Position numbers: made by a program. Positions 9,001 to 12,000 of a stretch of DNA of 27,166 bases are shown piece by piece; position 1 is the stretch's first letter, and each line of letters starts with the position of its first letter. The stretch comes from a virus (lineage: Duplodnaviria; Heunggongvirae; Uroviricota; Caudoviricetes), in IMG/VR virus record IMGVR_UViG_2526164690_000039. The stretch is one strand, 5' to 3'.

Positions 9001-12000
9001 GCCGCGATCCATATATTCCTGCATTGGCACATTGCGCCGGGAACCTGAAGCAATAAGGATTTTGTGATCGCGCATCCACGCAAACAGTTTGTTTGGACCA
9101 ATACCAACAACCTTTGCAAAGTTTCCAATCAAAATTCCGCTGGCCTCGCCAACGCGATCGGCAAACTCAACTTTAGGTGCGGCAATTGCGAGCTGGTTTT
9201 CCAGTTGCATTTTCTGCTCAGCAAGATCAGCAGCAAGGCGCAACGCTTCCGGTAACGTTTTGGGGATATTAACCGCAGTTTCTTCAAGCTCTCGCCAACG
9301 GTCAACAAGACGAGCGGTGAACTCTGGCGACAACTGGGCAACAACGACAATACTGTCTCGCTTACCTTGTTCGCCCTCGAAGACGTAATGCTCGTACTGA
9401 ACATTGAACCCTAAGTTATTGATTCTTTCGGAAACCTCAATTTGAGGAAGCCGGATAACACCATTTTTAGCCAGCGTTTCGATGGTACGTTTCACATTGT
9501 CATGACGCTTACCCACCAACTCAGCTATTTCAATGCTTGTCATTTTGATGGCATTGCCATTTATTAACTCATTCATCGTCTTCTTCCTCGTACATTGAGC
9601 TATTCGGATCGCTCATCAGTTCTGCGCAGCAGTACTCACACACGTGAACTTCCAGCACATGCAGCTTCTGACCGCAGTTAGCGCACGTTAAAGCTCGCTC
9701 GACGCTTTCTTTCTGGTATTGAAGGGATTGGGATGGGCTAAGCACTGAGAGATCCCCTCATAATTTCCCCAAAGCGTAACCATGTGTGAATAAATTTTGA
9801 GCTAGTAGGGTTGCAGCCACGAGTAAGTCTTCCCTTGTTATTGTGTAGCCAGAATGCCGCAAAACTTCCATGCCTAAGCGAACTGTTGAGAGTACGTTTC
9901 GATTTCTGACTGTGTTAGCCTGGAAGTGCTTGTCCCAACCTTGTTTCTGAGCATGAACGCCCGCAAGCCAACATGTTAGTTGAAGCATCAGGGCGATTAG
10001 CAGCATGATATCAAAACGCTCTGAGCTGCTCGTTCGGCTATGGCGTAGGCCTAGTCCGTAGGCAGGACTTTTCAAGTCTCGGAAGGTTTCTTCAATCTGC
10101 ATTCGCTTCGAATAGATATTAACAAGTTGTTTGGGTGTTCGAATTTCAACAGGTAAGTTAGTTGCTAGAACCCATGGCTCCTTTGCCGACGCTGAGTAGA
10201 TTTTAGGTGACGGGTGGTGACAATGAGTCCGTGTCGAGCGCTGATTTTTTCGGCCTTTAGAGCGAGATTTATACAATAGAATTTGGCATGAGATTGGATT
10301 GCTTTTAGTCAGCCTCTTATAGCCTAAAGTCTTTGAGTGACTAGATGACATATCATGTAAGTTGCTGATAGGTTTCCAGTTTTCCGCTCCTAGGTCTGCA
10401 TATTGTACTTTTCCTCTTACTCGACTTAACCAGTACCAACCCAGCTTCTCAACGGATTTATACCATGGCACTTTAAAGCCAGCATCACTGACAATGAGCG
10501 GTGTGGTGTTACTCGGTAGAATGCTCGCAAGGTCGGCTAGAAATTGGTCATGAGCTTTCTTTGAACATTGCTCTGAAAGCGGGAACGCTTTCTCATAAAG
10601 AGTAACAGAACGACCGTGTAGTGCGACTGAAGCTCGCAATACCATAAGTCGTTTTTGCTCACGAATATCAGACCAGTCAACAAGTACAATGGGCATCGTA
10701 TTGCCCGAACAGATAAAGCTAGCATGCCAACGGTATACAGCGAGTCGCTCTTTGTGGAGGTGACGATTACCTAACAATCGGTCGATTCGTTTGATGTTAT
10801 GTTTTGTTCTCGCTTTGGTTGGCAGGTTACGGCCAAGTTCGGTAAGAGTGAGAGTTTTACAGTCAAGTAATGCGTGGCAAGCCAACGTTAAGCTGTTGAG
10901 TCGTTTTAAGTGTAATTCGGGGCAGAATTGGTAAAGAGAGTCGTGTAAAATATCGAGTTCGCACATCTTGTTGTCTGATTATTGATTTTTCGCGAAACCA
11001 TTTGATCATATGACAAGATGTGTATCCACCTTAACTTAATGATTTTTACCAAAATCATTAGGGGATTCATCAGGGCTAAGCATGGCTTTCACCATTAAAA
11101 AGTCGCTTGTAAGCATCAATGTCTCGTTTTGCTTCACCGAGCTTTCGTCTTAATTCCATGTTTTCTGATTCAAGCTTTTCCATGTCTTGTTGGTATCGAT
11201 CGCGGTGTTCTTTCCATGCTTTTTGATACGCCTTCATGTATGTCATATTGGCCTTTCTCTTTGCCTGACGAACTGCGTGGTGGTTTTTCACAAACCAGTC
11301 AGGGTCGTTAAATGCTGCTCTGGCGCATGTATACCAATAATTTGTTGCCTCCCTGTTTAGCCAATAAATACTGATAAATGGCAACCGGATAGACACCATT
11401 TTTCGTTGTGACTCTTTCTCGCCAAACATGTGGCCTTTTTTGATGCTAAGTCCAAATCCAGGTTGAATTAAAAGCATTGTCATTTCCTCGCACGATGTCT
11501 TAGCCACCGGATATCCCACAGGTGAGCCGTGTAGTTGAAGGTTTTTACGTCAGATTCTTTTGGGATTGGCTTGCGTTTATTTCTGGAGCGTTTCGTTGGA
11601 AGGTATTTGCAGTTTTCACAGATTATGTCGGTGATACTTCGTCGCTGTCGTCTCATTCGTACCTCCTGTCGGTAAATCTGACGCCCTGACCAATAGCCCA
11701 TGCTGTCGTGTACTCAATCAGACTTGCCATACGCTTCACACTCATCTGCGCGCTACTTTCGCGAATGTTGACGTATTCGCCTTCAAGGCCGGGCAAAACA
11801 TCAGCTTCCTGCTTTGTTGCCACTGCATGACCGCTAATCAACAAAACCTTCCATTGTTCTGGTTTTAACCACTTATCGCACCATTGAACCTGACGTGCGA
11901 TATCCGCCAGCATCGCGTGAAATTTTGCGTTCTGGTCAAGGTTGCGCTTGTAGTCAGTAATGCGGATGGTGACTGGCTTGTCTTTATCGAGTGGTGTTGC

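Follow-up and report, generated by a model that had tools for sequence, protein, structure and literature searches.

What a mobile element has done to the prophage that received it is the question raised by a 27,166-nucleotide stretch of tailed-phage DNA (Caudoviricetes; IMG/VR record IMGVR_UViG_2526164690_000039; "the window" below means this whole stretch). It carries a complete copy of the insertion sequence (IS) IS10 in the nin region of a lambda-like prophage, between the early genes and the antiterminator gene Q. The initial annotation had proposed that the element might be polar on Q and the late genes, leave the prophage poorly inducible, and allow read-through into the genes downstream. 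Our analysis points instead, with good confidence, to a recent and clone-specific event in which IS10-Right transposed in canonical fashion into a perfect NGCTNAGCN hotspot, to be carried since then as a near-neutral passenger. The strain holds at least 40 IS10 copies, of which this insertion would be one, and the element would still be moving there; phage yield would be decided not by IS10 but by an older capsid deletion that goes back to a common ancestor with O26:H11.

The window matched the chromosome of Escherichia coli O111:H11 strain 88.0502 (NZ_CP077567.1), with 100% identity over the 2.2 kb around IS10. The element occupied exactly 1329 bp on the minus strand (9745-11073), with its outside end at 11073 and its inside end at 9745; in NCBI naming it is ISVsa5, and the NCBI pipeline labels its transposase "IS4-like element ISVsa5 family transposase". 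Its terminal letters, CTGAGAGATCCCC… opening the 9745 side and …GGGGATTCATCAG closing the 11073 side, were those of the inside and outside ends of IS10. When the two ends (CTGAGAGATCCCC… and CTGATGAATCCCC…) were compared by script, 17 of the first 23 positions agreed, giving imperfect 23-bp terminal inverted repeats at 11051-11073 (outside end, minus strand) and 9745-9767 (inside end, plus strand, with a Dam site GATC at 9751-9754, IS nt 1320). An IHF-like site, AATCATTAAGTTA, was found at 11032-11044 (IS nt 30) and another Dam site GATC at 11004-11007 (IS nt 67-70); a Dam site overlapping the -10 region of pIN has been described (PMC5006887).

The transposase gene (9758-10966, minus strand, ATG at IS nt 108) was the sole long minus-strand open reading frame (ORF) of the element and read from the outside end to the inside end. 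It encodes an intact protein of 402 aa whose DDE_Tnp_1 domain (PF01609) scored 87.3 bits against a cut-off of 23, so that script, ORF and domain together confirmed the complete element and intact transposase of the initial annotation. The antisense RNA-OUT (10959-11028, plus strand; Rfam RF00240, 98.8 bits against a gathering score of 41, full length at 1-70/70) overlaps the transposase start and is made from pOUT, antisense to the pR transcript; Rfam and tRNA scans of the whole window returned nothing else. All 1329 bp were 100% identical to the copy that lies next to tetD on many plasmids with Tn10, and the identical transposase sequence was present on more than 1000 contigs. The assignment to IS10-Right follows from this comparison with the plasmid copies, the tetD side of Tn10 being its IS10-Right side. 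Judged by its sequence, the element itself is indistinguishable from reference IS10; both the element and this type of event are already known.

Exact 9-bp repeats flanked the element, as had been described: the left copy of GGCTAAGCA (9736-9744) fits NGCTNAGCN, the IS10 hotspot consensus quoted in PMC4574204, and the right copy (11074-11082) matches the left exactly. An empty site of 313 bp, reconstructed from the flanks and one copy of the 9-mer, was 100% identical to the IS-free allele in many O26, O103 and other genomes, and at least 80% of it was found in 370 genomes. The orthologous prophage of O26:H11 strain 11368, which shares the attachment site and, where the two prophages correspond, is 99.8-100% identical, carried the 9-mer in single copy and was identical over the 85 bp compared. 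The joined, IS-free allele whose absence the initial annotation had said would speak against its proposal thus exists in many genomes, O26:H11 11368 among them. Because an exact 9-bp repeat stands at the exact ends of a known IS and an empty site matches it, a chance origin of this pattern is excluded. IS10 occupied this place in two of 5426 complete genomes, those of 88.0502 and its sister strain 88-19539, both bovine O111:H11 from South Dakota. On these comparisons the insertion is recent, clone-specific and routine.

The same evidence bears on the suspicion that the IS10 is an artefact, either an assembly error or a jump from a cloning host. IS10 is notorious as a contaminant of clone libraries, and one database entry of this same transposase sequence is such a contaminant, filed under a "human" cDNA name. 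Even so, the idea is hardly credible, given that the same junctions are present in two independently assembled complete genomes, that the target-site duplication is perfect, that the host holds at least 40 copies, and that the differences between the window and the RefSeq sequence of 88.0502 all fall outside IS10.

The prophage occupied the attachment site of lambda, between ybhC and ybhB, and its genes followed a single transcriptional axis, cI-cro-cII-O-P-ren-nin-Q-lysis, as in lambdoid prophages. The minus-strand order was cro, cII, O, P, ren, ninB, ninE, a 133-aa ORF, IS10, ninF and a roi-like gene, continuing with DUF1364/YbcO, rusA, ninH, a 72-bp Q remnant, lpxR (on the opposite strand), ylcG, Q, holin, lysozyme and Rz. 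Gene annotation therefore bore out the claimed position in the nin region on the pR strand, upstream of roi, rusA, ninH and Q, with the transposase co-oriented. The roi-like antirepressor gene (8854-9576, minus strand; Rha and KilAC domains) is the next gene 3' of ninF on the pR transcript.

At the insertion point, IS10 sat on ATGCTTAG, the overlapping stop and start of the 133-aa ORF and ninF, an aspect that the initial annotation overlooked. On the native minus strand (…GAA AGC CAT GCT TAG CC…) the 133-aa ORF ends in SHA-TAG and is overlapped by the ninF ATG; the duplication, TGCTTAGCC on this strand, includes the TAG and the last two bases of that ATG. Because the 9-bp staggered cut fell on ATGCTTAG, the stop was kept at one copy and the ninF codons at the other. 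The 133-aa ORF (11076-11477, minus strand; PHROG 1511, 1-133/133, E 1.5e-86) remained intact, with its TAG (11078-11076) inside the right duplication copy. All 58 codons of ninF (9569-9745, minus strand; Pfam NinF; PHROG 672, 1-58/58) were likewise kept: the native ATG (A at 11083) was replaced by a GTG (9745-9743) whose G is the terminal base of IS10 and which is followed by 57 native codons, the junction changing from …GCCATGCTTAGCC… to …GAGGGGATCTCTCAGTGCTTAGCC…. PGAP annotated NinF from that same GTG. The inside end of IS10 supplies a GAGGGG Shine-Dalgarno-like motif 8 nt 5' of the GTG, which itself lies 12 nt from the transposase stop codon. From the old ninF ATG, a stump ORF of 15 codons (11036-11083, minus strand; MLSPDESPNDFGKNH and a stop) runs into the outside end. 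The insertion breaks no gene, and both overlapping frames are preserved.

If no frame was lost, an effect on the prophage would have to come through transcription, and the first possibility is transcription out of the element. pOUT lies in the outermost ~100 bp of the outside end, points outward and activates adjacent genes (PMC9330008; direction also PMC5006887). In the present orientation it faces the 133-aa ORF, ninE and ninB, in antisense to pR, with ninF and Q behind it; pointing upstream, it would be unable to drive Q, and read-through from IS10 toward Q can only come from pIN. A pIN-up mutation giving ~100-fold more transcription was used to bring expression to a detectable level (PMC5006887), which argues that native pIN is weak. 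A consensus promoter scan of 9400-11600 gave no match; it also missed the documented pIN and pOUT and is hence uninformative. The proposed read-through into downstream genes was therefore upheld as far as the co-orientation of the transposase goes, but pOUT faces away and only the weak pIN remains.

It is very improbable on this evidence that IS10 acts as a mobile promoter which, in the repressed lysogen, activates ninF, roi, rusA, ninH and perhaps also Q. Such a role would draw on the co-oriented transposase, the short spacing of its stop from the ninF GTG with GAGGGG between them, and the known activation of adjacent genes by IS10 (PMC9330008). However, the activating promoter stands at the outside end and fires in the opposite direction, native pIN is weak (PMC5006887), the RNA-OUT of at least 40 copies should keep translation of the transposase down, and without N a transcript would have ~3.4 kb, including antisense lpxR, to cross before Q.

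The second possibility is polarity on the pR operon. IS10 lies between nutR, O and P on one side and Q on the other, on the same strand, and 1331 nt now separate the upstream stop from the ninF start. A read-through RNA was modelled from 60 nt of phage RNA joined to IS nt 1-200, and its segment at ~nt 52-63 was predicted to pair with the region of the transposase ribosome-binding site and AUG, the predicted mean unpaired probability of which fell from 0.565 in RNA-IN to 0.253 in the read-through RNA. Fold-back protection of the IS10 transposase start is classical, and the prediction agrees with it. With the start sequestered in this way and RNA-OUT produced from at least 40 copies, the model makes it unlikely that the transposase is translated on pR transcripts, and the resulting 1331 untranslated nt would be a plausible Rho substrate. 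The sense RNA of IS10 is also C-rich in part: C/G was at least 1.5 in 25 of 97 scanned segments, mostly at nt 79-330, compared with 12-14 of ~100 in the flanking genes. Unmodified transcripts would thus probably be halted by Rho in the untranslated, C-rich RNA of IS10, and read-through RNA, its transposase start sequestered by fold-back and further blocked by abundant RNA-OUT, would not activate the element.

Transcripts modified by N are expected to behave differently. The prophage encodes an intact N antiterminator of 90 aa (17371-17643, plus strand; N_peptide PF25694, 110.2 bits; PHROG 271) with the arginine-rich motif SRRRARRA. A putative nutR (15029-15074, minus strand), with boxA CGCTCTTT at 15067-15074 and a boxB hairpin TCGCTGAAAAGCGA at 15029-15042, lies between cro and cII, ~4 kb upstream of IS10 on the pR transcript, and a putative nutL (17226-17272, plus strand), with a boxA-like GGCTCTTTAA and a boxB hairpin TGGCTGAAAAGCCA, lies upstream of N. 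Both nut sites, identified by motif and hairpin alone, occupy the places expected downstream of pL and pR; their boxB elements have the same GAAA loop and predicted 5-bp stems that differ by one compensatory pair (C-G versus G-C). In nin regions of the lambda type, terminators overridden by N are present to begin with. N-modified transcription reportedly relieves the polarity of IS insertions (Adhya, Gottesman and de Crombrugghe 1974); a literature search on such relief by N gave no direct source.

Because the N gene is intact and nutL and nutR match, induced pR transcription should resist termination at IS10, and polarity is expected mainly on transcripts without antitermination. After induction, N-modified polymerase from nutR would cross the 1.3-kb element and go on to transcribe ninF, roi, rusA, ninH and Q (5686-6375, minus strand; an intact antiterminator of 229 aa, Phage_antiter_Q 307 bits, ~3.4 kb downstream of IS10). 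Given this read-through, the effect of IS10 on Q would be small, and the element would amount to one more N-dependent barrier of the nin type. The polarity proposed in the initial annotation is accordingly plausible for unmodified transcripts, which are C-rich and probably untranslated across the element, but unlikely for induced ones, given the N gene and the nut sites.

A stronger version, in which IS10 is so polar on the pR operon that Q and the late genes are under-expressed and the prophage is poorly inducible through this insertion, is unlikely. The position of the element and its long, probably untranslated, C-rich RNA speak for it. It would nevertheless have to operate in the presence of N and both nut sites, and no convincing intrinsic terminator was found inside IS10 (one weak match against 1.9 expected). 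It also meets a more basic objection, namely that an older deletion of capsid genes already precludes particles, so that IS10 is not the cause of poor phage release.

This older lesion lies just outside the window, beyond position 1, where ISEc22 (IS66 family) stands between a 174-bp remnant of the S49 head-protease gene and a gpU gene without its N-terminus, linking the two. The junction (L001, 1-1743, and L003, 6444-9398; in O26:H11 11368, L002, 1-2442) was common to 88.0502, 88-19539 and O26:H11 11368. Genes for major capsid, decoration and head-completion proteins were annotated in none of these three prophages, and the complete morphogenesis module of a viable phage was not present. Because the ISEc22 lesion is shared with the sister serotype, it is older than the IS10 insertion and precedes the O111/O26 split. 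Judging from the genes that remain, DNA replication and cell lysis could still follow induction, but not the formation of particles. For phage yield, the question whether IS10 renders the prophage poorly inducible is thus largely moot, the capsid genes having been lost earlier through the ISEc22 deletion.

A third way in which IS10 might matter is through selection, and here the behaviour of the element in its host is relevant.

A near-complete IS10 was present in 941 of 5426 genomes (17%), in agreement with the 16% quoted in PMC4574204. The host chromosome carried IS10 at no fewer than 40 places, and at least 40 IS10 pieces were found in only ~10 of 20,395 records, including that of the dam-minus laboratory strain ET12567. 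The prophage of 88-19539 held two IS10 copies in addition to the shared one, all three being 1329 bp long, identical and co-oriented. One extra copy (L004, 14182-15510) was flanked by TACCTGGCA, corresponding to window positions 8810-8818 in the 5' part of the DUF1364/ybcO gene, and the other (L004, 24615-25943) by CGCTCAGTC, corresponding to 17905-17913 inside sieB. Both duplications were perfect; neither target is a perfect NGCTNAGCN, and both fit the relaxed NRCNNNGYN. Since the hotspot copy is shared by both strains, it is the older one, and the extra copies of the sister strain indicate that IS10 kept moving afterwards. These comparisons are indirect evidence of an element still active in the O111:H11 clone.

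These extra copies invite the reading that the insertion was selected as domestication, dampening leaky or induced expression of Q and the holin, lysozyme and Rz genes in a prophage able to kill its host but unable to make phage. Annotation of the O111:H11 prophage gives intact genes for repressor, cro, cII, N, O, P, Q, holin, lysozyme and Rz while the capsid genes are gone, and the Poisson probability of two further copies in 27 kb is only ~0.016 (at 40 copies per 5.76 Mb). We nevertheless give domestication hardly a chance, because the target preference for a perfect hotspot alone explains the location, no reading frame was hit, a single clone carries the insertion, and the tolerance of prophages to insertions accounts for the clustering with no need of selection.

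Several observations accompany this expansion. Besides the duplicated site, the window held a single further NGCTNAGCN match, at 9215; this perfect site (TGCTCAGCA, 9215-9223, inside the roi-like gene and 520 bp from the occupied one) was empty in both O111:H11 strains, although one of them had gained three IS10 insertions nearby. Two direct IS10 copies in 88-19539 (L004, 14182-17774) stand on either side of ninF, roi and the start of the DUF1364 gene (its 5' end), making this segment a ready substrate for recombination deletion or composite-element movement. A gross dam defect behind the expansion, considered because of ET12567, was not supported: at the annotation level the host dam gene (L006, 6749-7585) is intact, at 837 nt, non-pseudogene and in the usual aroB-damX-dam-rpe context. 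No IS10 was found in 136 kb of the host chromosome (260-300 kb, 440-488 kb and 5130-5178 kb; L005-L007), which is rearranged relative to K-12, with bcs-gad-dam inverted and ybhC-bio and eut-tkt in the K-12 direction. A literature search on IS10 in O111 and O26 found nothing specific.

Some points weigh against a near-neutral passenger. Near-neutrality goes beyond what sequence can establish, and N read-through, Rho action and continued ninF translation are steps that we infer. ninF has lost its native ATG and is no longer translationally coupled to the ORF before it, and its level may change. RNase III cuts the RNA-IN/RNA-OUT duplex; if RNA-OUT from at least 40 copies paired with the RNA-IN segment inside the polycistronic RNA, that RNA could be cleaved, which would lower downstream mRNA in a way that N cannot relieve. 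Taken together, such effects would make the insertion anything but neutral: ninF would be rewired to a start and Shine-Dalgarno motif supplied by IS10, the element would form an added gate, dependent on N or on RNA-OUT and RNase III, that lowers Q and lysis, and the three co-oriented copies of the sister strain would be the outcome of selection or of local hopping, the clone being one in which IS10 escaped multicopy inhibition. We regard this combination as quite improbable and retain a routine, nearly neutral hotspot insertion as the probable account.

Further features of the prophage were recorded. Over the whole window there were 20 differences from the RefSeq sequence of 88.0502 (12 single-base indels and 8 substitutions), none in or near IS10; 18 of them lay at 1953-6826 (the others at 14147 and 24008), around a DUF6645 gene annotated as frameshifted. 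They may be assembly or polishing effects, and the "frameshift" label calls for caution. The lipid A deacylase gene lpxR (6849-7808, plus strand) stands between the antiterminator remnant near ninH (~7950-8022, minus strand) and ylcG-Q, an arrangement identical in O26; being on the opposite strand, it is crossed antisense by the pR transcript on the way to Q. A promoter-like TTGCAA-17-TATACT (5702-5674, minus strand) at the 3' end of Q is followed by a strong hairpin and T run (AAACCCGC…GGGTTT TTTTAT; 5640-5619), which together look like the late promoter pR' that depends on Q, along with its terminator. At its far end the prophage has the genes nleH and espJ and a frameshifted cif. In O26:H11 11368, an IS3-family element splits the 133-aa nin ORF (window 11280-11282; L002, 17346-18655) with a 3-bp junction overlap, the cII-to-sieB region (window ~14905-17987), including repressor, cro and N, has been lost, and IS600 lies near kil.

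The locus provides a clean natural example of a NGCTNAGCN hotspot with a verified empty site, of a 9-bp duplication that preserves two overlapping frames, and of an IS inside an N-antiterminated operon. It also holds a lesson for annotation, in that the prophage defect stems from the ISEc22-linked capsid deletion and not from IS10. Only two aspects are mildly unusual, namely that the element landed on a stop/start overlap with both frames preserved and that IS10 has expanded in the clone. With at least 40 copies despite copy-number-dependent antisense inhibition, the O111:H11 clone could serve as a natural system for IS expansion.

Compared with IS10-Right of Tn10 (IS4 family; J01829 as cited in PMC4574204), the window copy has the same length, transposase, ends, RNA-OUT, Dam sites, IHF-like site, 9-bp duplication and NGCTNAGCN target. 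It differs in being a solo IS10 outside any Tn10, and its novelty is confined to the insertion site. The IS3-family insertion of O26:H11 11368 is an independent IS hit in the same prophage, attachment site and small ORF, ~200 bp away; it belongs to a different IS family, splits the ORF and accompanies a lost immunity region, whereas IS10 leaves the ORF intact. The IS1 and IS2 insertions in the lambda early operons and gal, said to have been described by Adhya and colleagues in 1974, likewise place an IS inside an N-antiterminated phage operon upstream of needed genes. Those cases were reportedly tested by experiment, whereas here we infer N relief from the N gene and nut sites, and IS10 breaks no gene. 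The boxB of lambda has a GAAAA pentaloop, while that of this prophage has a true GAAA tetraloop on a 5-bp stem. A functional parallel is offered by the lambda nin terminators tR2-tR4, which make Q dependent on N: on the best reading IS10 would add an N-suppressible barrier in the same place, differing from them as an acquired mobile element with a presumptive barrier role.

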